Origin: Betaproteobacteria bacterium
GTDB lineage: Bacteria; Pseudomonadota; Gammaproteobacteria; Burkholderiales; SG8-39
Direction of reading: 5' to 3'
DNA length: 62,158 nucleotides
Assembly: GCA_005884455.1 (NCBI GenBank)
Contig: VBCH01000208.1
Location: 1 to 62,158 of the forward strand
Position 1 is the stretch's first letter. Every line of letters starts with the position of its first letter. Positions 2,385 through 53,380 of this stretch are shown piece by piece. The notes below the pieces were generated by a model. The model searched no databases. It was given only the letters and a program-made list of their open reading frames with translations, and was not told the origin of the DNA. Made by a program: the position numbers and the translations under genes.

Positions 2385-4916
2385 GTGTCCGGCCTATCGC
2401 AAGCCAACATTCTGGTGGTCGACGACGAGCGGCATGGCCTGCTTGCCATGCGGGAGCTCCTTTCCGGGCCCGACCGGAACGTGCTAGCGGCCGGGTCGGG
2501 GAAGGAGGCACTGAGACAGATTCTCAAAACCGACTTCGCGCTCATTCTGCTCGACATTCGCATGCCCGAAATGGACGGTTTCGAAACCGCCACGTTGATC
2601 CGCAAGCTCAAGCGTTCCCGTCACACCCCCATCATTTTCCTCACTGCTGTTCTCGAAGACGCTCAATCGGTCTTCAGAGGGTACGAAATCGGGGCGGTGG
2701 ACTACATTCTGAAGCCGGTAAATATCGACATCCTGAAGTCGAAGGTGGCGGTGTTCGTCGATCTGTACAGCAAGAGCGCGGAGCTCGAGACGCAGGTCAA
2801 CCAGCGCAAAATCGCGGAACGGGAATTGTCGAAGGTCAACGAGAGCCTTGAAACCAAGATACGGGAGCGCACTGCGAGTCTCATCGCCGCGAACGACCTG
2901 TTGCGGAAGGAAATCGAGATGCGCAAGCAGGCCGAGGAGGATCTGCACAAGGCGAAGCGGGCGGCCGAGACCGCGAACCTGGCGAAGTCGGAGTTTCTGG
3001 CTAACATGAGTCACGAAATCCGGACTCCGATGAATGCCATCATCGGGATGACCGAGCTCGCTTTGCAGACGGCTCTGACGCCGGAGCAGCGCGAGTACCT
3101 CGATCTCGTAAAGGCCTCGGGCGCCTCCCTCTTGACGGTCATCAACGATATTCTGGATTTCTCGAAGATCGAGGCGGGGCGGCTGCAAGTCGAGACCATC
3201 CCGTTCTCCCTGCGCGAGACCCTGGGCGACACCATGAAAACGCTGGCGCTCGGGGCCCACCGAAAGGGCCTCGAGCTCGCCTATGAAATCCGGCCCGACA
3301 CCCCCGATGCGCTGCTCGGCGACCCGGTGAGGTTGGGCCAGATCGTACTCAACCTGGTGGGCAATGCAATCAAGTTCACCGAGCGCGGCGAAGTGATGAT
3401 GCGCGTTCAACCCCAGTCGAGCGACGGTGGCGAGGTGAACTGTTATTTCACCGTGAGCGACACCGGAATCGGCATCGACCAGGAAAAACAGATCGCTATC
3501 TTCGCGCCGTTTCTGCAGGGCGATACCTCGACGACGCGCATCTACGGGGGCACGGGACTGGGGCTGACGGTCTCGGAGCGTCTGGTGGAAATGATGAACG
3601 GAAAGATCTGGGTCGAAAGCGAGCCGGGCAAGGGAAGCATTTTTCACTTCACGGTACGCTTCGGCCTGCAGACCGTGGCGCAAGGCGAACAGCGGGCGAT
3701 CGATTTCAAGGAGCTGCGGGCTCTGGTGGTGGAAGACCATGCGGTCAGCCGCCGCATCCTCGTGGACACGCTGAAACGATGGAACGTCGAGGCGCACGAA
3801 GCCGAGAGCTGCGAATCGGTGACGGAAATCCTGGCACAGGCGAAGCGGGCAAAGGCGCCGTTCCGAGTCGTGTTTCTGGATGACACTCTGCCGGACGTGG
3901 ACAGCTATGAACTCGCCGCGCAGATACGGAAGAACCCGCGCCTCGGGGTCCAATGTGTGATCGTGCTCGGTTCGGCGCTGCGACGCGAGGAAAAAAGAGA
4001 CCGCCTCGACGGCGAGGTGTTGTCCTGCCTCACCAAGCCGGTCAAGCAGTCGGAACTTCTGGATGCCGTCCGCGCCGTGTCCGGCATACCGACTCGCGGC
4101 GGAGCTCGGCGGGCACCGCAGGCGTCGGGGCGCTCGCAAAGAATCAAGCCGGCGCTGCACATCTTGCTGGTCGAGGACAATCCGGTAAACCGCAGACTCG
4201 CCCAGCACGTGCTCGAGAAAGAGGGTTACACAGTCGCCGCCGTGGACAACGGGGCCGCCGCGCTGAAGACGCTCGAACGTGAGCGCTTCGATCTTGTCCT
4301 CATGGACGTGCAGATGCCCAGAATGGACGGGATCGAAACCACCGCGGCAATTCGAAACCGGGAAAAGACTGCGGGGGGATATATTCCCATCGTCGCGTTG
4401 ACCGCGCATGCGATGGTGGGTGATCGCGAACGCTGCCTGAAGTCGGGGATGGACGGCTATTTGATCAAGCCTATCCAGCCGGCGACGCTGCTCGAAGCGA
4501 TCGAGCAACTGCATCTTGCTTCCGGCGGCCGGTCAAATTCTGCGCGCGCCGACAAGATCGTGCTCGATCGGGCAACGTTGCTCGATCGAGTCGACGGCGA
4601 CATGCAGTTGCTCGGCGAGATTACCAAACTGTTTCTGCAGGAGTGCGACCCGCTCATGGCGAGCGCCCGCGAGGCCATGAAAACCGGAAACGCCGGACGT
4701 TTTGCCTACGACATCCATACCCTGCGCGGGATGTTCCGCAGCCTCTCCGCTACTGCGGCGCAGGAAGCGGCGGGAAGACTGGAGGAACTCGATTTGGTTA
4801 AGAATCTGGAAAAAGTGCAAGTGGCCTACGCACTGCTCGAGCAGGAAGCGCAGGCGCTCAAGGCCGAGCTCGGGGGGATTATCGACAAGACGGTCGCTTC
4901 CTCGGGGGTGATGTGA
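2385..4916 (+). CDS. hybrid histidine kinase, REC-HisKA-HATPase-REC-REC-HPt architecture
   Basis: GTG start 12 nt after the upstream stop. N-terminal receiver ([19 protein letters not shown]). H-box [17 protein letters not shown]-boxes DTGIGI and GGTGLGLTV. Two further receivers (second: [16 protein letters not shown]). C-terminal HPt-like HTLRG. Confidence 0.9.
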
Positions 4917-5796: not shown

Positions 5797-6969
5797 TTGC
5801 CTGGGATGGACCGAAGGGCGCTCCTTGGGCATCGGATGAAATTCGGGGGGTGGGTGGCCACGGTTCTTGTCGTCGAGGACCGACCCGTCAATCTGCGGTT
5901 CGTTGCGACGCTGCTCCGGGACCGGGGGCATCGTTTGCTTGAAGCTCGGAGCGGCGAGGAAGCGCTGCGGATCGTTCGCGCCGAAAGCCCCGACCTGGTG
6001 ATCATCGACATACTCACGTCGGGCATGGACGGCTGTCAGTTCGTCCTCAATCTGCGCTCAGAGCCGAACTCGGTCCAGCCGCGGATCGTGTTTCGGGCCG
6101 CCGCTCACATCGCGGCCGAAGCCGAGGCATTGGCAACCACCTTTGGCGCGTCTTTCATTGCGAAGCCCGTCGACCCCGAGACGCTGCTAGCGGTCGTCGA
6201 CGCGGCTCTTTCCGGGCCGAGTGCACTCCCGATGGAGGCGCATTCACAGGATAAGTCCATCGACTCGTTCCTGCGCCCTATCGCCCGTAAGCTCCACCGG
6301 CATACGGCGAATCTCGAACGCCTCAACGCCCAGCTGGATCGTGGCATCGCCCAGCGCGACGCGCAGCTCGAAGTGGTGAGAGCGGCGCTGGACCAGGAGA
6401 TCAAGAAGCGGCTATTGGCGGAGCGGGAGCTGACGCAGGCAAACCTCCGCTTGAAAGACCAGGTCGTGCATGACGGGCTGACCGGCCTCCATAACCGCCG
6501 CTACCTCGAGGAATCGCTCGGTCGGGAAGAGAGCCGCGCCCGGCGCAGCGGCCTGCCCTTCGGCGTAATGATGATCGATATCGACAACTTCAAGCGCTTC
6601 AACGACACGCTCGGCCACGCCGCAGGAGATGCGGTGTTGCGTGCAATAGCCCAGTACATGCTGTCCGTTGCGCGGGGCGAGGATATCGTCTCCCGCTACG
6701 GCGGCGAAGAGTTCGTTCTGGTCATGGCTCCAGGCCTGCAGGGAACGGTCTCGGAGCGAGCTGAAAAGCTCCGCCGGGACGTGCAGGATCTCGAGATCGA
6801 GTACGAGGGCCGGCGAGTCGGACCCATCACGATATCCGTGGGCATCGCGATATTTCCCGACCACGGCGAGAGCGGGCAGGAGGTGCTGCGAGCCGCCGAC
6901 GCCGCCCTCTATCAAGCCAAGCGATCGGGGCGTAACTGCGTTGTGGTTGGGGACAAGGTGAAGGCTTGA
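5797..6969 (+). CDS. response-regulator diguanylate cyclase (REC-coiled coil-GGDEF)
   Basis: Receiver (VLVVEDRP, LVIIDILTSGMDG, AKP). GGDEF domain with the GGEEF active site. An RGED I-site-like RxxD lies 5 residues upstream. The ORF opens with TTG at 5797; in-frame ATGs at 5806 and 5836 are alternative starts. Confidence 0.88.
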   Translation: MPGMDRRALLGHRMKFGGWVATVLVVEDRPVNLRFVATLLRDRGHRLLEARSGEEALRIVRAESPDLVIIDILTSGMDGCQFVLNLRSEPNSVQPRIVFRAAAHIAAEAEALATTFGASFIAKPVDPETLLAVVDAALSGPSALPMEAHSQDKSIDSFLRPIARKLHRHTANLERLNAQLDRGIAQRDAQLEVVRAALDQEIKKRLLAERELTQANLRLKDQVVHDGLTGLHNRRYLEESLGREESRARRSGLPFGVMMIDIDNFKRFNDTLGHAAGDAVLRAIAQYMLSVARGEDIVSRYGGEEFVLVMAPGLQGTVSERAEKLRRDVQDLEIEYEGRRVGPITISVGIAIFPDHGESGQEVLRAADAALYQAKRSGRNCVVVGDKVKA

Positions 6970-6999
6970 TCGGCCGGCGCGAGGACGCGGCGCGCGAAG

Positions 7000-7500
7000 T
7001 CAGGCGCGGGGATCGTACGCGACGAAGTGGTAGCTGAAGCCTCCAACCTTGTCGAGAACGCGAGACTCGCGGGCGGCCTCGCGCCATTGTGAGCGGTCGA
7101 ACTCCGGAAAAAAAGCGTCGCCCTCGAAGTCGCGCTCGATCTCGGTCATATAGAGGCGGGAGGCGAGCGGAAGAGCGAGCGCGTAGATCTGCGCGCCGCC
7201 GATGACGAATGCGTCCTGAGGTTCGCGCACAGCTGCGATAGCGGCCTCGAGTGAATGGGCGGCGTGGCAGTCCGAGCGGGTCCAATCGGGGGAGCGGGTG
7301 ATCACGATGTTCTCTCGCCCCGCAAGGGGCCCGCCGATCGATTCAAATGTTCGGCGACCCATGATCACCGCGTGACCAAGCGTAAGTTGCCTGAAACGCC
7401 TCAAGTCCTCCGGGAGGTGCCAGGGCATGCGGTTGCGGTGGCCGATGACGCCGTTGCTCGCCACGGCGGCGATGATGACGACGCGCGACAAACCGGTCAT
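7000..7500 (-). CDS. folA: dihydrofolate reductase
   Basis: 166 aa. Contains VIGHRNRMPWHLPEDLRRFRQLTLGHAVIMGRRTFESIG, typical of type I DHFR. Confidence 0.93.
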   Translation of the reverse strand: MTGLSRVVIIAAVASNGVIGHRNRMPWHLPEDLRRFRQLTLGHAVIMGRRTFESIGGPLAGRENIVITRSPDWTRSDCHAAHSLEAAIAAVREPQDAFVIGGAQIYALALPLASRLYMTEIERDFEGDAFFPEFDRSQWREAARESRVLDKVGGFSYHFVAYDPRA

Positions 7501-7563
7501 TTCGGGTCGACAGGACGGGAGAGCAAGTTCACGATGCGCAAAACTGCGGCATTATAGCGGGCC

Positions 7564-9030
7564 ATGAAAATCGGGCTCGACTTCCCCCAGCGCTACTACC
7601 CGCGATCGTTTCTGAGCCTGCTGCTGCTCGCCTTCGCGCTCGTCGCTGCGCCGCTCGTCGTGGCTTTTTACAACGCTGCGGTGTATGTCGAGCAGCTTGC
7701 AGGTCAGAGCCAGACCGCGGTTTCTCAGGCGGCGCAAGCCTCCCGCGGCAGCCGGCTCCTGGTCGAACAAACCACGGCGCTCGAACGGGTGGTGCGCCAG
7801 TATCTCATCCTCGACGACGAGGAGCTCCTCAAGGATTACGCTCGGTTGAGAGCGAACTTCAAGGCGAACACCAGCGAGCTGTCCCTGCAGCCGCTCGACG
7901 AGCCGCAGCTGCAGGAGCTCAACAGCACGATCGACAAGGAGCAGGGGCTCTACGAACAGCTGCTCGGGAAACCGAAAACGACGGGCGAGAAGAAGGCGCT
8001 CGTGGAAGGCTACTTGGTGCTGTCGGGGCTGGCGCGGGACGTGCTCAATACGAGCAACGCCTTGATCGACCGCGAGGTGGAATCCATGCGACGCACCGGC
8101 GAACGCGCGCAGCGCATCCTCTGGCTGCAGCTCGCCGCAACGATCCCGCTCGGGATACTCCTTGCGGTCGGAGTCACGCTCCTCATCGCTAGACCGATCC
8201 GCCAGCTCGACCAAGCCATCCGGCGCCTCGGCGCCGGCGAGTTCGAGGGCGATATCCGGGTCGGCGGGCCGGCGGACCTGAAATACCTGGGGAGCCGGCT
8301 CGACTGGTTGCGACAACGGCTGATCGAACTCGAACAGCAAAAGCGCCTGTTCCTGCGCCACGTCTCACACGAGCTCAAGACGCCCCTGACGGCGCTTCGC
8401 GAAGGATCGGAGCTGCTGGTGGAGGGGACGGCCGGCTCGCTTTCGCCGGGCCAGCGCGAGATCGTCGAGATCCTCCGGCAAAAGAGCGTGCAATTGCAGC
8501 AGCTGATCGAGGGCCTTTTGAACTACCATCGAGCGCAGGAGAGCGTGGGGCGCCTGGAGGTGACGGCGGTGCGATTCGACCGGGTCGTGGAGCAGGTGCT
8601 CGACGATCACCGGCTCGCGGTCCAGGCTCGTGGCATCCGCGCCGACCTGCGGCTGGATCCAGTCATACTTCAGGCCGACGAGGAAAAATTGCGCGCAGTT
8701 GCGGCGAATCTGGTCTCCAATGCGATCAAATACTCGCCTGACGAGGGTATGATTTCGCTGGTGCTGCGAAGAGAGGGGGCTGAGGTAGTGTTCGACGTGA
8801 GAGACGCGGGTCCGGGAATTCCTCCCGAGGATCGCGACCGGATTTTCGACTGGTTCTATCAGGGCGAGGACATCCATCACGGCCGCGTGCGGGGCAGCGG
8901 TCTGGGGCTCGCGATCGCAAGGGAATTTGTGGTGGCTCACGACGGTCGCATCGAGGTCGTGAGCGATCGCGAAGGCGGCGCGCATTTCCGCGTCACGCTT
9001 GCGGCCGGGACTCCGGGTGCCGAGCCATGA
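7564..9030 (+). CDS. glrK: two-component sensor kinase, GlrK/QseE family
   Basis: Two TM segments, HAMP, H-box FLRHVSHELKTPLTALREGSELL, RQYLILDD periplasmic motif, and an HATPase C-terminus. These closely parallel E. coli GlrK as I recall it. The stop overlaps the next start (ATGA). Confidence 0.85.
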   Translation: MKIGLDFPQRYYPRSFLSLLLLAFALVAAPLVVAFYNAAVYVEQLAGQSQTAVSQAAQASRGSRLLVEQTTALERVVRQYLILDDEELLKDYARLRANFKANTSELSLQPLDEPQLQELNSTIDKEQGLYEQLLGKPKTTGEKKALVEGYLVLSGLARDVLNTSNALIDREVESMRRTGERAQRILWLQLAATIPLGILLAVGVTLLIARPIRQLDQAIRRLGAGEFEGDIRVGGPADLKYLGSRLDWLRQRLIELEQQKRLFLRHVSHELKTPLTALREGSELLVEGTAGSLSPGQREIVEILRQKSVQLQQLIEGLLNYHRAQESVGRLEVTAVRFDRVVEQVLDDHRLAVQARGIRADLRLDPVILQADEEKLRAVAANLVSNAIKYSPDEGMISLVLRREGAEVVFDVRDAGPGIPPEDRDRIFDWFYQGEDIHHGRVRGSGLGLAIAREFVVAHDGRIEVVSDREGGAHFRVTLAAGTPGAEP

Positions 9031-9533
9031 TCCGGATCGCCGCAATCCTCTGCAGCATCTCGCTCGCCGGGTGTGCCGCCTTATCCACTCCAGGTTCAGG
9101 TTCCGGAGGTTCGGGCGCCTCTTGGGCGCGCGAGAACCGGGAATCGCGGCAGGTCATCGAGCTGATCGCATACACCCAGAGAGTCGCGGCGCTGCAGGCG
9201 GATGAGCAGCAACGCGAATTGAACGCTTCGGCCCAGATGCTTTCCAAGGATCGCAGCGCCTACGGGCGGGTCCGGCTCGCGCTGCTGCTTGCGTTGCCTG
9301 GAACTGCGTTCAACGACGACACCCGGGCCGCGGGCCTGCTCGAGTCTCTCGCGGGCGCGGGAGCCTCCGAATCGGCGCCGGGCCCGATGCAGCAGTTTGC
9401 CGGACTGCTTTATGCCCAGATCAGCGAACGCTTGCGCGAGCAGCGCCGCACGGTCCAACTGAAGGAGCAGCTCGAGGCGCTGAAGGCGGTCGAGCGCAAT
9501 ATCATAGAGCGCGAGCAAGCGCGACCAAGATGA
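9027..9533 (+). CDS. lipoprotein, QseG/YfhG-like position and features
   Basis: Lipobox ISLAGC. Helical C-terminus (LKEQLEALKAVERNIIERE) resembling the YfhG tail. Sandwiched between the kinase and regulator genes with ATGA overlaps on both sides. Confidence 0.7.
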   Translation: MIRIAAILCSISLAGCAALSTPGSGSGGSGASWARENRESRQVIELIAYTQRVAALQADEQQRELNASAQMLSKDRSAYGRVRLALLLALPGTAFNDDTRAAGLLESLAGAGASESAPGPMQQFAGLLYAQISERLREQRRTVQLKEQLEALKAVERNIIEREQARPR

Positions 9534-10870
9534 GCACCATTCTCCTCGTCGACGACGATCCGGATATCCTGAAGCTCATTTCCCTGCGACTGACCGCCGC
9601 CGGCCACAGCGTCAAGGGCGCGGACAGCGGGGAGAAGGCGCTCGCCGTGCTCGCAGCTTCGCGACCTGAGCTCGTCATTACCGACCTCAAGATGGGCGGA
9701 ATGGACGGCTTGAGCTTGTTTGACGAGATCCGCAAGCAGGCGCCGACCCTTCCTGTCATCATCCTGACCGCGCATGGGACGATCCCCGAGGCGGTCGCCG
9801 CGACCCGCCGCGGGGTTTTCGGGTTTCAGTCCAAGCCGTTCGACGGGAAGCACCTGCTCGACCAGGTAGAACAGGCTCTGCGCCTTTCCGGAGTCGCACA
9901 GAGGGGGGGCGAGGAGGACTGGCGGCGCGACTTCGTGACGCAGAGCCCGAAAATGGAGAACGTGCTCCACCAGGCGCGCCTGGTTGCCCAGTCGGAGGCG
10001 AGCGTGTTCATCCAGGGCGCGAGCGGCACGGGAAAGGAGCTCCTCGCGCGCGCGATACACCGGGCAAGCCGCCGCTCGCAGGGACCCTTCGTGGCGGTCA
10101 ATTGCGCGGCGATCCCGGAAAATCTGCTCGAATCGGAATTGTTCGGCCACCGCAAGGGCTCGTTTACCGGGGCGACCTACGATCACAAGGGGCTCGTCCC
10201 CGCCGCCGACGGAGGGACGCTGTTCTTGGATGAAATCGGCGACATGCCTCTTGCTTTGCAGGCCAAGCTCCTGCGCGTGCTGCAGGACCGCGAAGTGCGT
10301 GCGGTCGGAGCGACTCAGGGAACGGCGGTCGACGTGCGCGTCATCTCTGCCACTCACCGCGACCTCGACGCGCAGATGAAAATGGGGCGGTTCCGCGAGG
10401 ATCTCTACTATCGACTGAACGTGGTCTCGCTCGCGCTCCCGCCCCTCTCCGAGCGGCGCGAAGACATCGTCCCTCTGGCGACCCATTACCTCAGAGTTAC
10501 CGCCGCGCGTTACCGAAAGGACGTCCAGGCAGTGGCTCCGGAGGGGCTTCAAACGCTCCTTGCGGCACCTTGGCCGGGCAACGTGCGGCAGCTTGTCAAC
10601 GTGATCGAACAGGCGGTTGCACTCTGCCCTTCGGGCGTCGTGCCGGCCTCGCTCATCCAGCAGGCGTTGAGGGAGGAGCCCGCGCAGCTTGCGTCGCTCG
10701 AGGAGGCGCGGGGAGCCTTCGAGCGCGAATACCTGGTTCGGATCCTGCGCATCACTGGCGGCAGCGTGACCCGGGCGGCGAAGCTCGCGCAGCGCAATCG
10801 CACCGAGTTCTACAAGCTGCTCGAGCGCCACAAGCTCGAGCCGAAGATGTTCAAGCCCGAAAAGGGCTGA
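9530..10870 (+). CDS. glrR: sigma-54-dependent response regulator, GlrR/QseF family
   Basis: Receiver ([30 protein letters not shown]). AAA+ domain with GASGTGKE, the GAFTGA-type loop (KGSFTGA) and ESELFGH. C-terminal HTH. The N-terminus closely matches E. coli GlrR as I recall it. Confidence 0.9.
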
Positions 10871-10904
10871 AACCCGACCGATCCACGCGCGGAATTCGTC
10901 GCGT

Positions 10905-10922
10905 TGTCGCTCCGGGGCGACA
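10905..10922 (+). promoter_or_regulatory. candidate enhancer (UAS) site, TGTC-N10-GACA palindrome
   Basis: TGTCGCTCCGGGGCGACA, with 7-bp arms TTGTCGC/GCGACAA spanning 10904-10923. About 165 nt upstream of the predicted sigma-54 start site. It matches the GlrR/QseF site consensus as I recall it. Confidence 0.6.
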
Positions 10923-10968
10923 ACAAATTCCCTTTCCCATCAGTTCGATTTTTGCCGCTCGCGGGAAA

Positions 10969-10988
10969 GCGTCGTTGACAAGCGACGC
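10969..10988 (+). promoter_or_regulatory. second candidate UAS, GCGTCG-N8-CGACGC palindrome (GTC-N10-GAC core)
   Basis: Perfect 6-bp inverted arms, about 100 nt upstream of the predicted sigma-54 start site. It matches only the inner GTC...GAC of the consensus. Confidence 0.45.
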
Positions 10989-11050
10989 ATTGAGAATCCT
11001 TGGGATCCTTGGTTCCCCTTAACTCGTTGAGTCAGCGCAAGAACTTATGT

Positions 11051-11066
11051 TGGCACGGGGATTGCA
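11051..11066 (+). promoter_or_regulatory. sigma-54 (-24/-12) promoter
   Basis: TGGCACGGGGATTGCA is an exact TGGCAC-N5-TTGCW. It is the only such match I found on either strand. It sits in a 274-nt intergenic region, about 80 nt before the ATG at 11145 and directly downstream of the sigma-54 activator gene. Confidence 0.8.
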
Positions 11067-11144
11067 CACATGCCAGCGATCCCGCCGCGATACGGGTGGC
11101 GGTAGAGACAATTTGCTGAAGCGAGCGCGCTCCAATACGGATAA

Positions 11145-11627
11145 ATGCGGATCGATACTCTCTTCGCAGGACGGGCGGTTCCGGTCCTGATTGCGGGTCT
11201 GATCGGCGTCGCAGCCGTCACGGGCTGGTTGCACAGCGGGTTCTCGCCCCATCAGGGCGACGCGCAGTCGGCAGACGCCGGGCGCAAACCCGTCCCGGCA
11301 AATGGCTGTGCCTTGTGCGGGACGGTCGAGTCCATCCGGACCGTCGAGGTGCGCGATGAAGCGGGCGGTGCCGGAGCGGCGGCAGGCGGACCCGGCGGCG
11401 CCGGCGACCAGGCGCCAGGGGGAGGGAGCGCCGCAGTCACGCTCTTCGGGACAGGAGGCGCGATCGCCGGGAGCGAGATCGAGAAGAACATGAAGAAGCG
11501 CTATGCATATCGAGTGACGGTGCGCATGGACGACGGCTCCTTTCGCACCATTTCTTTGTCGAGCCCGCCCACATTCGCGGTAGGCGAGAAGGTCCGGGTG
11601 GTAGAAGGCAAGCTCGTGCGCACGTGA
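11145..11627 (+). CDS. membrane-anchored glycine-zipper (SlyB/17-kDa-antigen-like) protein
   Basis: N-terminal TM segment, CALCGTVESI motif, Gly-rich zipper region, then EIEKNMKKRYAYRVTVRMDDGSFRT. This pattern is typical of glycine-zipper 2TM envelope proteins of Betaproteobacteria. Weak SD. Confidence 0.72.
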   Translation: MRIDTLFAGRAVPVLIAGLIGVAAVTGWLHSGFSPHQGDAQSADAGRKPVPANGCALCGTVESIRTVEVRDEAGGAGAAAGGPGGAGDQAPGGGSAAVTLFGTGGAIAGSEIEKNMKKRYAYRVTVRMDDGSFRTISLSSPPTFAVGEKVRVVEGKLVRT

Positions 11628-11676
11628 AAAGGCAGGTATAAGAAAACACTACTTGTTCAAGTGAGGAGAAAAGAAA

Positions 11677-12084
11677 ATGCCAAGCCTTAAGCGGACCGTC
11701 GCACGCGCTCTTGTCGTCAGCTTGTGCGCCCTAGGTCTGCCGATTCCAGCCGTGCAAGCCGAGCTGGTCGCGACCGATCGAGTCGAGGCGACCCGCCAGG
11801 GCGGGTCTTCGGGGCGCGAGTTCCTGCGCTCGCTTTTTGAGCGGGCCGACGTCCGGGCCGCGCTCGAACGGCAGGGCGTGAGCGCCGACGAAGCGAAAGC
11901 CCGCGTCAACGCCATGAGCGATGACGAAGTCGAGCAGCTCGCTGTGCGGTTCGACTCGTTTCCCGCTGCGGGCAACGGGTTCGAGAGCGCGCTGTGGTTT
12001 GGGTTTCTGGTGTTCATCATCCTTCTCGTAACGGATATTCTGGGCTTCACCAAGGTTTTCAGCTTCACCCGGCCGGCCAAGTGA
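11677..12084 (+). CDS. PA2779-family protein (secreted, C-terminal TM anchor)
   Basis: Signal peptide ...AVQA. Motifs ALERQGVSADEAKARVNAMSDDEVEQLA. C-terminal TM FLVFIILLVTDILGFTKVF. SD GAGGAG upstream. Paired with the following peptidase, as in the PA2778/PA2779 families. Confidence 0.8.
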   Translation: MPSLKRTVARALVVSLCALGLPIPAVQAELVATDRVEATRQGGSSGREFLRSLFERADVRAALERQGVSADEAKARVNAMSDDEVEQLAVRFDSFPAAGNGFESALWFGFLVFIILLVTDILGFTKVFSFTRPAK

Positions 12085-13070
12085 TCCTCCCCTCTCGACC
12101 GCGCCGGCGTGTCGCCCGCCGCCTTACGGCGGCGGGCATCTTTCTTCTCGGGCTTGCGGGCTGCGCCACGCCGCAGCTGCAGGCCCTGGTGGGGAGCCGT
12201 TCCGCTGGGATTCCGCAGCGCGCGGAGCTCGACGCCGTCCCGTTCTTTTCACAGGAGGACTATCAATGCGGTCCGGCCGCTCTTGCGATGGTGCTCAGCG
12301 CGGGAGGCAAGGCGATCGAGCCGGAGGCGCTGCGGCCGCAGGTCTATCTTCCCGATCGGCACGGGAGCCTGCAGATCGAGATGATCGCGGCGGCACGTCG
12401 CAACGGTTTTGTCGCAATCGAGCTCGCTCCGAACCTCTCGGATCTCCTGGCCGAGATCGCCGCAGGAAATCCAGTGGTCGTGCTGCAGAACCTCGCCGTG
12501 GACTGGTATCCGGCTTGGCATTACGCTGTGGCGATCGGCTATGACCTCAAGGCCCAGCGCATCACTCTGCGCTCGGGCACGGAGCGGCGCCTCCAGATGC
12601 CGCTCGATACCTTCGAGCATACCTGGCGGCGCAGCGGCTATTGGGCGATGCTCGCCCTGCCGCCGCGGCGCCTGCCGGCGAGCGTGGCTGCGGGCGACTA
12701 TCTGAGCGCGGTGGCTCGGCTCGAAAAAACCGGCCGGGCCGCGTCGGCGCGGGACGCCTACGAAAGAGCGCTCGAGCGCTGGCCCGACGATCTTACGGCG
12801 CTCATAGGGTTGGGAAACGCGGCCCATCGCGACGGCGACTTGGAAGCGGCGGAACAGGCGTTCCGGCGGGCCACTCTGGCTCATCCGCAGTCGGCCGCCG
12901 CGCACAACAATCTGGCCCAAACGCTCGAGGAACTCGACCGTCATGACGAAGCATTGGCCGAAGCGCGTGCGGCGGTCGGGCTCGGCGGGCCGCTCGAGGA
13001 CGTCTCGATGCGCACGCTGGACGCCATCGTCTCGCACGCTGGCCGGGGCGAGCAGGAATGGAACCGATGA
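12081..13070 (+). CDS. PA2778-family C39-like cysteine peptidase lipoprotein with TPR repeats
   Basis: GTG at 12081 overlaps the upstream stop (GTGA). Lipobox LLGLAGC. C39-type QEDYQCGPAALAMVL (catalytic Cys) and WHYAVAIGYD (His). C-terminal TPR-like repeats. The listed ORF start at 11994 is probably an over-extension. Confidence 0.8.
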   Translation: MILPSRPRRRVARRLTAAGIFLLGLAGCATPQLQALVGSRSAGIPQRAELDAVPFFSQEDYQCGPAALAMVLSAGGKAIEPEALRPQVYLPDRHGSLQIEMIAAARRNGFVAIELAPNLSDLLAEIAAGNPVVVLQNLAVDWYPAWHYAVAIGYDLKAQRITLRSGTERRLQMPLDTFEHTWRRSGYWAMLALPPRRLPASVAAGDYLSAVARLEKTGRAASARDAYERALERWPDDLTALIGLGNAAHRDGDLEAAEQAFRRATLAHPQSAAAHNNLAQTLEELDRHDEALAEARAAVGLGGPLEDVSMRTLDAIVSHAGRGEQEWNR

Positions 13071-13094
13071 TCCGGGCGACGCCGAGGTGAGTAC

Positions 13095-14102
13095 GTGCGA
13101 ACTCTCATGGCCATGCATCGTGGGACACCCACGCACAGCCTCTGGAGCGGCCTGCGGCAGATCTTCACGCACGGCATTATCACCGCGCTCGCCGTCGCCA
13201 TCGCGTTTTCGCTCCCGGGTATCGCGAACTACATCCTCAACGAATGGTGGCCCGAGGTCGAGAGCAATGCCAATCTCCTGCTCGCGACCGAGATCGCCCT
13301 GGCGTCAGTCCTCGCGCTCGCGTTCAATCTGGCCAAGATCGCCTGGGACAGCAGACAGGGCGTCCGCACCGCACGCCTCGCGTCCCTGATCTATGCGCGC
13401 AGCGCCGGCGCCGGCTGGTGGTCGCGGCGGCGCGAGCGCGCCCTGATAAGGCAGCTTCCGGCCCCGCGCGACGCTTTCGTCCTGACCCTCACCGGATACG
13501 ACACCTTCGTCGCCGACGACAGCTTGTTGCGGGGCGTAATCGGAAAGGCGTACGAGATCCGCGTGATGCTGGTCAACCCGGTCGGAAAAGCGCTGCGGGA
13601 GCGGGCGGAATCCCTGCCGCCCGAGATCACGGTGCTCACGCTGCACACCGAGATCGAAGCGGCAATCGGGTATCTCTCGGCGCTGCGCAAGTTCGGCAAG
13701 ATGGTGAAGCTCAAGTTCTACGACGAGGAGCCGTTCTGGAAGCTGATCGTGCTCGGCGACTACGTCTGGGTGCAGCATTGCCACAGCGGTTTCGCGGTCA
13801 AGCAGCAGCCCGAATTCGTGTTCGCCCTGCAGCAGCGCGAGCCTCGCCACGGCCTCTTCGTGCCCTTCTACATGGTTTTCCTCAATCAGTGGAATGATCC
13901 GCGTCATCCCGAGTACGATTTCGACACGAACGAGCTGGTCTACCGCGACGCTTCCGGAAGGGAGACCGGGCGGACCGCTCTCGGCGTGCCGATCAACGGC
14001 GCAACGATGCCGCTGCCCTCGCCCCGGGTGCCCGGCGCGGCGGCTGACTCCCTTGCGGCGCTGCTGCGCCGCCCCGAACCCGAGCGCACGGCAGCACTCT
14101 AG
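13095..14102 (+). CDS. hypothetical 2TM membrane protein with uncharacterised cytoplasmic domain
   Basis: GTG start 5-7 nt after SD GAGGTGAG. Two clear TM helices, then a ~230-aa domain (EIRVMLVNP..., [24 protein letters not shown]..., FLNQWNDP). The pattern vaguely resembles non-catalytic PLD-like/DUF5919-type domains. It starts 24 nt after the peptidase gene. Confidence 0.65.
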
Positions 14103-51494: not shown

Positions 51495-52163
51495 TCACGG
51501 GAACGCCGGGCAGCCGCGCGGCTCGGGGGGCGCCAGGGCGGGATCGCACATGCGGATGCTTCCCCCGGGATTGACGATGAGGCGCAGAGCCCGCATCGCG
51601 CTGGGAGAGACATTGGGATTGGTCACGTCGACCTTGACGATGCTCGGCGTGGCGTCGGCGTTCGCGATGACGTTACCCAGCGCCGCGAAAGTCACGGTGC
51701 TCGCGGCCTGCGCCGCGGGCGCGGCGGGCGGGGACGGCACGAACACCGACGTCGCCACGGCGTTGGGGGAACCCTCGGCGCTGGTGCGTTTCTGGAGAAT
51801 TCGCACGGCTGGCGGGGGAGTCTCCTCGTGGTACGTAGGTCTGTCGCACGCGCCGCTGGGATCGTCGAGGCTCACGATCCAGGTGACCGAGACCGGCGCA
51901 GTGACGGAGGCACTCGCCAAGACGCAAGTCGAGGTCAAGTCGGAAACGAGCTGGAAGCGCACCGGGGTGTTGCGGCGCACCGCCTCCGCGCGCGCCACCT
52001 GCAGGCCGTTGAGCGTTGCCTCGGCGGCGGCGCGGATCTGCTGGTTCTGCAGCCATTCGATGAAGCCCGGAGCGCCCAGCGCGAGCAGCACGCCGAGGAC
52101 CACCAGCGAGATCATGACCTCGATGATGGTGAAGCCGCGCTGCGAGCTATGCGCGCTCAGCAT
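51495..52163 (-). CDS. fimT: GspH/FimT/FimU-family pseudopilin
   Basis: QRG/FTIIEVMISLVVLGVLLALGAPGF...ARAEAVRRN is typical of the GspH domain. I cannot separate fimT from fimU by eye. Confidence 0.8.
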   Translation of the reverse strand: MLSAHSSQRGFTIIEVMISLVVLGVLLALGAPGFIEWLQNQQIRAAAEATLNGLQVARAEAVRRNTPVRFQLVSDLTSTCVLASASVTAPVSVTWIVSLDDPSGACDRPTYHEETPPPAVRILQKRTSAEGSPNAVATSVFVPSPPAAPAAQAASTVTFAALGNVIANADATPSIVKVDVTNPNVSPSAMRALRLIVNPGGSIRMCDPALAPPEPRGCPAFP

Positions 52164-52621
52164 TGGCCGCCCTTTCTGATGGTCCAGCAGTTCAAATTGT
52201 TGGTGTATCCGGCTTGATCCATCGGCGAGCCCGGAGCCACCGCCGTGGCACGACCGTTGCCTTCGTTGATCGTGTAAGTGATGCCCACCAAGGTGGCGTC
52301 GGTGCCGTCGGCCTGGATCGTGTACTGGGTGGCCGTGAGCACCGGGCAAGTGATGGTGAAGTACTTAAGGGCGGGGATCGGGACGCTGGAGCCCGCGATG
52401 CACGGAGCGAGCACGGGGGCGCCGGGGGTGGTGTACGAGCGGTTGTCCTGGAAGTACTGCTCCATCTTCGTCCTCATGGCGAGCAGATTGGAGGTCGCTT
52501 CCTGGAGCTTGCCGCGCCTCACATAGTCGGAATAGTTCGGGATGGCGATCGCCGCCAGGATCGCAATGATCGCGACCGTGACCATCAATTCAATCAGGGT
52601 GAAACCGTTTGGGCGCTGCAT
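52157..52621 (-). CDS. pilE: PilE-like type IV pilin (first gene of the cluster)
   Basis: NG/FTLIELMVTVAIIAILAAIAIPNYSDYVRRGKLQEA...MEQYFQD, with a C-terminal Cys pair (CWTIRKGGQC). SD AAGGGGG. The stop overlaps the fimT-like start. Confidence 0.8.
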   Translation of the reverse strand: MQRPNGFTLIELMVTVAIIAILAAIAIPNYSDYVRRGKLQEATSNLLAMRTKMEQYFQDNRSYTTPGAPVLAPCIAGSSVPIPALKYFTITCPVLTATQYTIQADGTDATLVGITYTINEGNGRATAVAPGSPMDQAGYTNNLNCWTIRKGGQC

Positions 52622-52813
52622 GGGGACCCCCTTCTTTTGCGGCTCAATGATAGGGAACTCGGGGAGTCCGCCGCAAACCTTCCCGACGAGTGGCCGAAAT
52701 CGGCGTACGTACGGCACCAGCGCGGGAATTCTAGCGGAATTAGTTCACGTTTCCGGAGCGCGGTTCCCGGGGCCGGGAGCCCGAATTAGACAAGGTCCAA
52801 ATGCTCGTTTAGA

Positions 52814-53304: not shown

Positions 53305-53380
<76 letters not shown>

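Follow-up and report, generated by a model that had tools for sequence, protein, structure and literature searches.

A putative GlrR/QseF-dependent sigma-54 promoter region may connect a QseEGF-like sensing module to an adjoining envelope operon in soil Burkholderiales

The QseE/QseF two-component system (TCS), also known as GlrK/GlrR, is treated as a system of the Enterobacteriaceae whose direct targets are glmY, glmZ (in some species) and rpoE (PMC6075780, PMC3045617), and its physiological stimulus is stated to be unknown (PMC6075780). The promoters of glmY, in all Enterobacteriaceae, and of glmZ, in a subset of them, are sigma-54 promoters that depend on GlrR/QseF; the published GlrR consensus is TGTCN10GACA, with three activator sites, the proximal pair being the most important, and IHF is required (PMC3045617). 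The P2 promoter of rpoE in E. coli is another QseF-dependent sigma-54 promoter, for whose activation QseG is needed (PMC6075780). A KEGG-based survey found GlrK/GlrR orthologues in beta- and deltaproteobacteria and in Nitrospira, their targets not being named (PMC8895600), and the passages of a comparative sigma-54 study in which QseF-like activators are listed are silent on a betaproteobacterial regulon (PMC3162934). The present analysis concerns a contig of a Betaproteobacteria bacterium from the Burkholderiales (VBCH01000208.1; the whole stretch analysed, 62,158 nt, is called the window below), in which a 274-nt gap separates a GlrR/QseF-like regulator gene from an operon of four envelope genes. 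This gap is predicted to be a GlrR/QseF-dependent sigma-54 promoter region, from which the adjacent regulator, itself under GlrK/QseG-like control, would directly drive the operon. The sequence shows the motifs and how they are conserved, the homology of the three sensing genes, the lack of GlmY and the families of the targets; activator binding, sigma-54 dependence, the start site, a part for IHF and the nature of the signal are inference, and for that reason we put the probability of this reading at roughly 0.8.

Three motifs carry the prediction, and all lie between the stop codon of the regulator gene (9530-10870) and the ATG at 11145. An earlier note on this DNA had read a sigma-54 promoter at 11051-11066 and two palindromes, about 165 and about 100 nt upstream of the expected start; the three motifs are indeed found there, the computed centres of the palindromes being at -163.5 and -98.5. 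The features of the gap are as follows.

11051-11066, + strand: predicted sigma-54 -24/-12 promoter, TGGCACGGGGATTGCA (TGGCAC at 11051-11056, then GGGGA, TTGC at 11062-11065 and A at 11066)
10905-10922, no strand: candidate distal enhancer site UAS1, TGTCGCTCCGGGGCGACA, an exact TGTC-N10-GACA of the form TGTCGC-N6-GCGACA, centre at about -163.5
10970-10987, no strand: candidate proximal enhancer site UAS2, CGTCGTTGACAAGCGACG, CGTCG-N8-CGACG, that is GTC-N10-GAC, centre at about -98.5
11020-11032, no strand: conserved block TAACTCGTTGAGT (TAAC-N4-TTGA), centre at about -51, a possible IHF bending site
11077-11144, + strand: predicted 5' leader of 68 nt, not conserved in relatives

The promoter element is intergenic, points toward the first gene of the operon, lies 79 nt before its ATG, and has the GG and GC dinucleotides 10 nt apart in an exact consensus (11051-11065). 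Transcription is predicted to start 12 nt past the GC of the -12 element, at about 11077, and the positions of the palindromes are counted from there. Both palindromes extend beyond their core, UAS1 to TTGTCGC-N6-GCGACAA (10904-10923) and UAS2 to GCGTCG-N8-CGACGC (10969-10988), and they are 65 bp apart, forming the sole such palindrome pair within the 62 kb. Both centres fall in the range expected of activator sites, about 80-200 nt upstream.

A lone TGTC-N10-GACA, of which 0.75 are expected by chance, is not significant alone. For the promoter, chance was estimated from 1500 first-order Markov simulations of the window, which put the expected number of exact promoter motifs at 0.108. The figure is 0.005 for the promoter motif together with one GTC-N10-GAC located 40-200 nt upstream, and the promoter motif with two such palindromes appeared in none of the 1500 simulations. 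TGGCAC-N5-TTGC had been taken by the earlier note to be unique in the 62 kb, which does not hold: a second exact copy (TGGCACGACCGTTGC) is present at 52246-52260 on the + strand, antisense within an open reading frame (ORF) of the minus strand (52157-52717). This copy, upstream of which no palindrome was found, is probably a non-productive intragenic site. As an aside on that region, the neighbour of ORF 52157-52717 in its cluster begins with a pilin-like N-terminus (MLSAHSSQRGFTIIEVMI...). One could suppose that the motif cluster of the gap has arisen by chance, or is decayed and functionless, and that the operon owes its transcripts to read-through from the kinase operon or to some promoter that was not recognised. 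The expectation for a single palindrome and the clearly intragenic second motif would suit this explanation, as would the intragenic, non-productive sigma-54 sites that a study in E. coli describes as common (PMC4591121). The composite arrangement, never obtained in the simulations, speaks against it, and so do the recurrence of the same geometry in other genomes and a conservation pattern that is specific to the motifs, both described below; we consider it highly improbable.

The useful relatives of the locus were found by exact-protein look-ups; a metagenome scan with gene 1 of the operon, dominated by a low-complexity Gly-rich pattern, gave just 8 loci. Leaving the window aside, 16 related metagenomic loci contain the promoter module, i.e., two palindromes 56-67 bp apart and a -24/-12 element, at a total of 19 promoters. 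The regulators of these loci, which JGI pipelines already label GlrR, are 62-98% identical to that of the window where measured, those of L098-L101 being 81-87% identical by protein search. Ten syntenic relatives (L081, L082, L089-L097) were compared more closely. Their gene order, where the contig is long enough, consists of a dihydrofolate reductase (DHFR)-type gene on the minus strand, the kinase, lipoprotein and regulator genes, then gene 1 and the genes for the DUF6627, C39/TPR and 335-aa proteins, and finally a thymidylate synthase gene on the minus strand. The earlier note had named conservation of the palindromes and promoter in related genomes as a check, and all ten relatives carry TGGCACG(G/A)GGATTGC(A/G), TGTCGC-N6-(G/A)CGACA and CGTCG-N8-CGACG. 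The palindromes are always 65 bp apart and the proximal one lies 81-83 bp from the promoter, while the distance to the start codon is variable. Palindrome arms are invariant in this alignment, and the inner six bases of UAS1 vary (TCCGGG, CCTTAG, CCAGTG).

The same contrast is seen when conservation is expressed as mean column identity over 16 aligned related promoters. It reaches 1.0 for TGGCAC at -24 and 0.98 for TTGC at -12, against 0.61 for the 5-nt spacer between them; for the palindromes it amounts to 0.93 in the arms and 0.57 in the spacer of UAS1, and to 0.90 and 0.59, respectively, in those of UAS2. The TAAC-N4-TTGA block near -51 stands at 0.75, and all other aligned columns at 0.51.

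The promoter module is also found in the more distant loci L001, L002, L083, L084, L085 and L098-L101, each of the last four having one. L083 has two, at 3315(+) and 5852(+), located before a gene for a 723-aa FN3-repeat protein and before a glycine-zipper gene. In L084, three modules surround the regulator gene on both strands, at 974(-), 4655(+) and 9104(-), and stand before a gene for a BON/EF-hand protein with a glycine-zipper gene next in line, before a gene for bactofilin, and before an ORF of 174 aa. This clustering in L083 and L084 points to a multi-operon envelope regulon. Beside the module in L001 (7374-7784), L002 (7300-7678) and L085 (466-705) lies a gene for a small lipoprotein of about 80-90 aa, absent from the window, which has the motif G(W)RDG(F/Y)D(Y/I)C and belongs to no Pfam family; in L001 this gene has its own CGGCAC-N5-TTGCA element and palindrome. 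L100 is of particular use for assigning the palindromes to a gene. An IS1595-family transposase gene and other DNA (6459-9188) there lie between the regulator gene and the operon, which are thus about 2.8 kb apart; the module stands directly before the operon, away from the regulator gene (sigma-54 element at 9124). Since the module has remained with the operon, the palindromes would belong to the downstream promoter and not to a 3' feature of the regulator gene.

Three genes upstream of the gap form the sensing module.

7564-9030, + strand: GlrK/QseE-like sensor histidine kinase, 488 aa, with HAMP, HisKA and HATPase domains (Pfam)
9027-9533, + strand: QseG-like lipoprotein, 168 aa, with the lipobox LAGC and a C-terminal LEALKAVERNIIER motif
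9530-10870, + strand: GlrR/QseF-like sigma-54 enhancer-binding response regulator, 446 aa, with Response_reg, Sigma54_activat and AAA_lid_14 domains (Pfam) and a C-terminal helix-turn-helix (HTH)

Stop and start codons of these genes overlap, and their order, kinase-lipoprotein-regulator, is that of qseEGF (glrK-yfhG-glrR). Full-length alignment of the kinase with enterobacterial GlrK gives 32-33% identity (E ~1e-60). The lipoprotein has no Pfam or NCBIfam match and gave no match to QseG when searched by tblastn against enterobacterial loci; its relation to QseG is shown by profile-to-profile comparison only, in which the alignment of the lipoprotein and its relatives matched a QseG alignment from gammaproteobacterial loci with an hhalign probability of 94.9% (E = 4e-8), the match including the C-terminal motif LEALKAVER in the window lipoprotein and LENLTDIERQL in QseG. 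The best NCBIfam model for the regulator is GlrR (NF011695, 605.4 bits), followed by NtrC (415.6 bits). Against GlrR of Proteus, Kluyvera, Yersinia and other Enterobacterales, the regulator shows 56-58% identity, and in the alignment the phospho-acceptor Asp52 and the G-x-FTGA loop are invariant. Furthermore, the 12-residue recognition helix of the C-terminal HTH is identical in the window regulator, its betaproteobacterial relatives and GlrR of Proteus, Kluyvera and Yersinia, so that the same TGTC-N10-GACA specificity is to be expected. It is also the sole GAFTGA-type protein, that is, the sole sigma-54 activator, encoded in the 62 kb. Judged by these alignments, the genes at 7564-10870 are a true counterpart of qseE-qseG-qseF (GlrK/GlrR), in line with the GlrK/lipoprotein/GlrR-like module that the earlier note had recognised. 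A genome scan for the regulator, based on peptide patterns common to all sigma-54 activators, yielded two betaproteobacterial relatives among the matches listed, the others being enterobacterial GlrR or unrelated activators. Separately, the kinase and regulator genes of L101 (3512-6320) overlap directly, with no QseG-like gene between them, and its regulator is 81% identical to that of the window.

Several points weigh against direct control of the operon by this regulator. With 605 bits, the regulator falls below the equivalog cutoff of the GlrR model NF011695 (763 bits), and neither an RpoN-box motif nor rpoN was found within the 62-kb window. In UAS2, the outermost T and A of the consensus are missing. 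The IHF-like block carries a mismatch, as ACTCAACGAGTTA, the reverse complement of the TAACTCGTTGAGT block, is one position off the IHF consensus WATCARXXXXTTR quoted in PMC3045617, and other lineages fit the block only loosely. All relatives are metagenome-assembled. Between the regulator gene and the operon there is no terminator, so that read-through could add to expression. Lastly, UAS1 is also able to form a 9-bp RNA hairpin, directly after the regulator stop codon.

This hairpin would agree with a different explanation, in which a real sigma-54 promoter is fired by another enhancer-binding protein, and the palindromes either bind another factor or, in the case of UAS1, act as a terminator hairpin; the genome beyond the window could also encode further activators. 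The match of the palindromes to the published GlrR consensus, which is exact, and the presence of GlrR's own recognition helix in the regulator favour the neighbouring regulator instead. As for a terminator, the hairpin has no U-tract and was not called by a terminator scan; its arms are conserved and its loop (the spacer of the palindrome) is variable, with no compensatory stem changes required. The location of the L100 palindromes 2.8 kb from the regulator gene and next to the target operon, as well as the occurrence of the same sites before other genes on both strands in L083 and L084, argue against this explanation. Termination of the regulator gene was rejected as the main role of UAS1 on the basis of the terminator scan and the L100 position, and the explanation as a whole is improbable, if somewhat less so than an origin of the motifs by chance.

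With control by the GlrR-like regulator as the preferred reading, the question arises of what the promoter transcribes. In the synteny of the Enterobacteriaceae, glmY is located directly upstream of the kinase gene, which is not the case in the window: the gap upstream of the kinase gene measures 63 nt (7501-7563) and is bounded on its other side by a divergent DHFR-type gene, leaving, as the earlier note had argued, no room for a GlmY-like small RNA (sRNA). An Rfam search at gathering thresholds found no GlmY or GlmZ in the window, and a scan of 6900-13200 at permissive thresholds returned only chance-level matches. The same Rfam search found neither GlmY nor GlmZ in the scanned betaproteobacterial relatives and no GlmY in non-enterobacterial gammaproteobacterial loci, and did detect GlmY at the Proteus locus, used as positive control. 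The sole Rfam match in the window at gathering threshold is a tRNA gene (53305-53377, + strand).

A GlmY analogue could alternatively be derived from the leader itself, the promoter mainly making a short regulatory RNA and the downstream genes being expressed by read-through only. That the same regulator drives sRNA genes in enterobacteria (PMC3045617) lends this idea some appeal, and the leader does contain a short GC hairpin. Yet the leader folds no more stably than shuffled sequence does (z = 0.03), no Rfam match was obtained even at permissive thresholds, and neither a terminator-like site nor a sigma-70-like promoter was found between 10700 and the ATG at 11145, which bears out the leader of about 70 nt, a protein operon and no terminator that the earlier note had described. 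In addition, the leader is largely deleted (about 60 nt) in L089 and L090 and partly in L095, with promoter and ATG kept. On the folding value and these deletions, the leader was rejected as a riboswitch or sRNA, and a promoter devoted to a regulatory RNA is very unlikely. In L089 (5972-6003) and L090, the predicted start would be about 3 nt before the conserved ATG, and the mRNA would be nearly leaderless.

In non-enterobacterial gammaproteobacteria, no clear promoter module was seen in loci L010, L017, L018, L020 and L025. In L017, a metagenome-assembled genome (MAG) of Arsukibacterium, a pair of GlrR-type palindromes spaced by 65 bp and a weak -24/-12 element (TGGTAACAATGTTGCG) are seen at 3455-3726, some 270 nt ahead of the kinase gene; there was no Rfam match to GlmY in this locus, and the arrangement may correspond to a divergent sRNA or to autoregulation of the operon.

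The genes downstream of the predicted promoter are the following.

11145-11627, + strand: gene 1, SlyB-like glycine-zipper envelope protein, 160 aa, with an N-terminal membrane helix, a CxxCG motif and a Gly/Ala-rich region
11677-12084, + strand: gene 2, PA2779-family/DUF6627 protein, 135 aa, with a signal peptide and a C-terminal membrane helix
12081-13070, + strand: gene 3, PA2778-family C39-like cysteine peptidase with TPR repeats, a lipoprotein (lipobox LAGC)
13095-14102, + strand: gene 4, membrane protein of unknown family, 335 aa, whose 3' end converges on the thymidylate synthase gene

The four-gene operon extends to 14102, beyond the end at 13070 that had been given to it in the earlier note. 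The product of gene 1 has a conserved C-terminal domain and matches the SlyB entry 7ojf of the PDB weakly, though over its full length (E = 0.002, residues 15-151); it has no Pfam match and no canonical lipobox. Homologues at 49-68% identity do match PF05433, the 49%-identical one being that of L083, and some sources name such homologues SlyB or glycine zipper 2TM. Nearly all of its 617 homologues come from soil metagenomes or MAGs labelled Burkholderiales or Betaproteobacteria. Gene 2 is assigned to NCBIfam NF033919 (107.7 bits, cutoff 40) and Pfam PF20332, and gene 3 to NCBIfam NF033920 (337 bits, cutoff 150) and to Peptidase_C39_2 and TPR families of Pfam. For gene 3, a new start was assigned, the GTG at 12081; this codon overlaps the stop codon of gene 2 (GTGA), gives a lipoprotein signal that ends in LAGC, and agrees with the gene calls in relatives (329 aa). 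The gene 4 protein, with no Pfam, NCBIfam or PDB match, is encoded in the syntenic relatives and also in L083 and L084, and is absent from L098 and L099.

Taken together, the following course of events can be proposed. The kinase, aided by the QseG-like lipoprotein, would phosphorylate the adjacent GlrR-like activator, which would then bind the inverted repeats TGTCGC-N6-GCGACA (about -163) and CGTCG-N8-CGACG (about -98), 65 bp apart. Bending of the DNA, probably at the TAAC-N4-TTGA block near -51, would loop the activator onto sigma-54 RNA polymerase at TGGCAC-N5-TTGC. ATP hydrolysis by the activator would open the promoter, transcription would start near 11077, and the transcript would encode the SlyB-like, DUF6627/PA2779 and PA2778 C39-like lipoprotein peptidase proteins and the membrane protein of unknown family. 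In this uncultured soil Burkholderiales lineage, the system would in this way act on envelope genes directly, and not via GlmY.

Compared with the glmY and glmZ systems, the window has a homologous regulator with an identical recognition helix, the TGTC-N10-GACA pattern, a promoter of the form TGGCAC-N5-TTGC, two sites 63-67 bp apart, a possible IHF-like block, and the kinase-lipoprotein-regulator gene order. In the Enterobacterales loci fetched, glmY promoters combine their -24/-12 element with as many as three TGTC-N10-GACA sites, whose centres fall at about -124 to -142, -187 to -205 and -220 to -237, the two promoter-proximal ones being 63 bp apart. Betaproteobacterial promoters differ in having usually two sites (about -98 and about -163 in the window) where enterobacteria have three; these are located some 25-40 bp nearer to the promoter, the extra site spaced by 32 bp is missing, and the extended site consensus is TGTCGC-N6-GCGACA. 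The predicted target is moreover a protein operon downstream of the regulator gene, and not an sRNA gene upstream of the kinase gene, and the window has neither an overlapping sigma-70 promoter nor GlmY, GlmZ or a comparable RNA that could be found. NifA-type sites (TGT-N10-ACA) were considered for the palindromes and rejected, as the spacing in the window is TGT-N12-ACA.

The rpoE P2 promoter is similar in that a member of the same regulator family acts there on a protein-coding gene with a link to homeostasis of the cell envelope, according to the summary of PMC6075780. However, rpoE encodes a regulator, sigma-24, so that the output is still a regulatory cascade, whereas the predicted targets in the window are envelope proteins encoded next to the regulator gene. 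Control of slyB by PhoPQ in Enterobacteriaceae (bioRxiv 10.64898/2026.06.08.730324; SlyB structures 7ojf and 7ojg) offers a further parallel, in that a TCS of envelope stress induces a glycine-zipper protein of the SlyB type. There, PhoPQ and sigma-70 are at work, instead of the QseEGF-like system and sigma-54 predicted in the window, and the window protein is only distantly SlyB-like (E = 0.002) and is devoid of a canonical lipobox.

The module and its predicted target thus represent a known system in re-wired form, and not a new kind of system. The earlier note had expected a different, protein-coding target: the protein operon is borne out, but a target of this nature has a precedent in E. 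coli rpoE P2 (PMC6075780). Searches of the literature turned up neither this regulon nor anything on how PA2778 or PA2779 is regulated. The counterpart found in abundant soil Burkholderiales appears to keep the enhancer grammar while aiming it at envelope proteins, in some relatives at several operons, and would illustrate how one and the same sensing module can pass from controlling effector genes directly to acting through a regulatory RNA, or the other way round. It would also provide a first regulatory context for two uncharacterised families, PA2778 (C39-like peptidase) and PA2779/DUF6627, and a co-regulated gene set from which the signal of the sensor might be guessed. As the window regulator and E. 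coli GlrR have the same recognition helix, the prediction could be tested in E. coli, with no need to culture the source organism.

More speculatively, QseE/QseG/QseF might ancestrally have been a direct response to envelope damage, with the GlmY/GlmZ and rpoE outputs of the Enterobacteriaceae as later additions, a scenario that we hold to be possible but rather unlikely. If it were true, the core output would comprise a SlyB-type glycine-zipper protein together with further proteins of the periplasm and outer membrane, namely BON/EF-hand proteins, a C39-like lipoprotein peptidase with its DUF6627 partner, and bactofilin, and such a regulon content would point to a perturbation of the outer membrane or of divalent cations as the stimulus of QseE.

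Two minor observations can be added. In L001, which is a Burkholderiales MAG, Rfam reports a chrB-b cis-regulatory RNA at 731-788 on the + strand (38.6 bits, threshold 36.5), unrelated to the promoter module of this locus. Within the operon of the window, the + strand contains at 12114-12137 a perfect 10-bp GC hairpin, GCCCGCCGCC-TTAC-GGCGGCGGGC, followed by ATCTTTCTTC. It is located inside the signal-peptide coding region of gene 3, 30 nt past the stop codon of gene 2 (DUF6627), and might act as an attenuator inside the operon, fixing how much of the products of genes 1-2 is made relative to those of genes 3-4.

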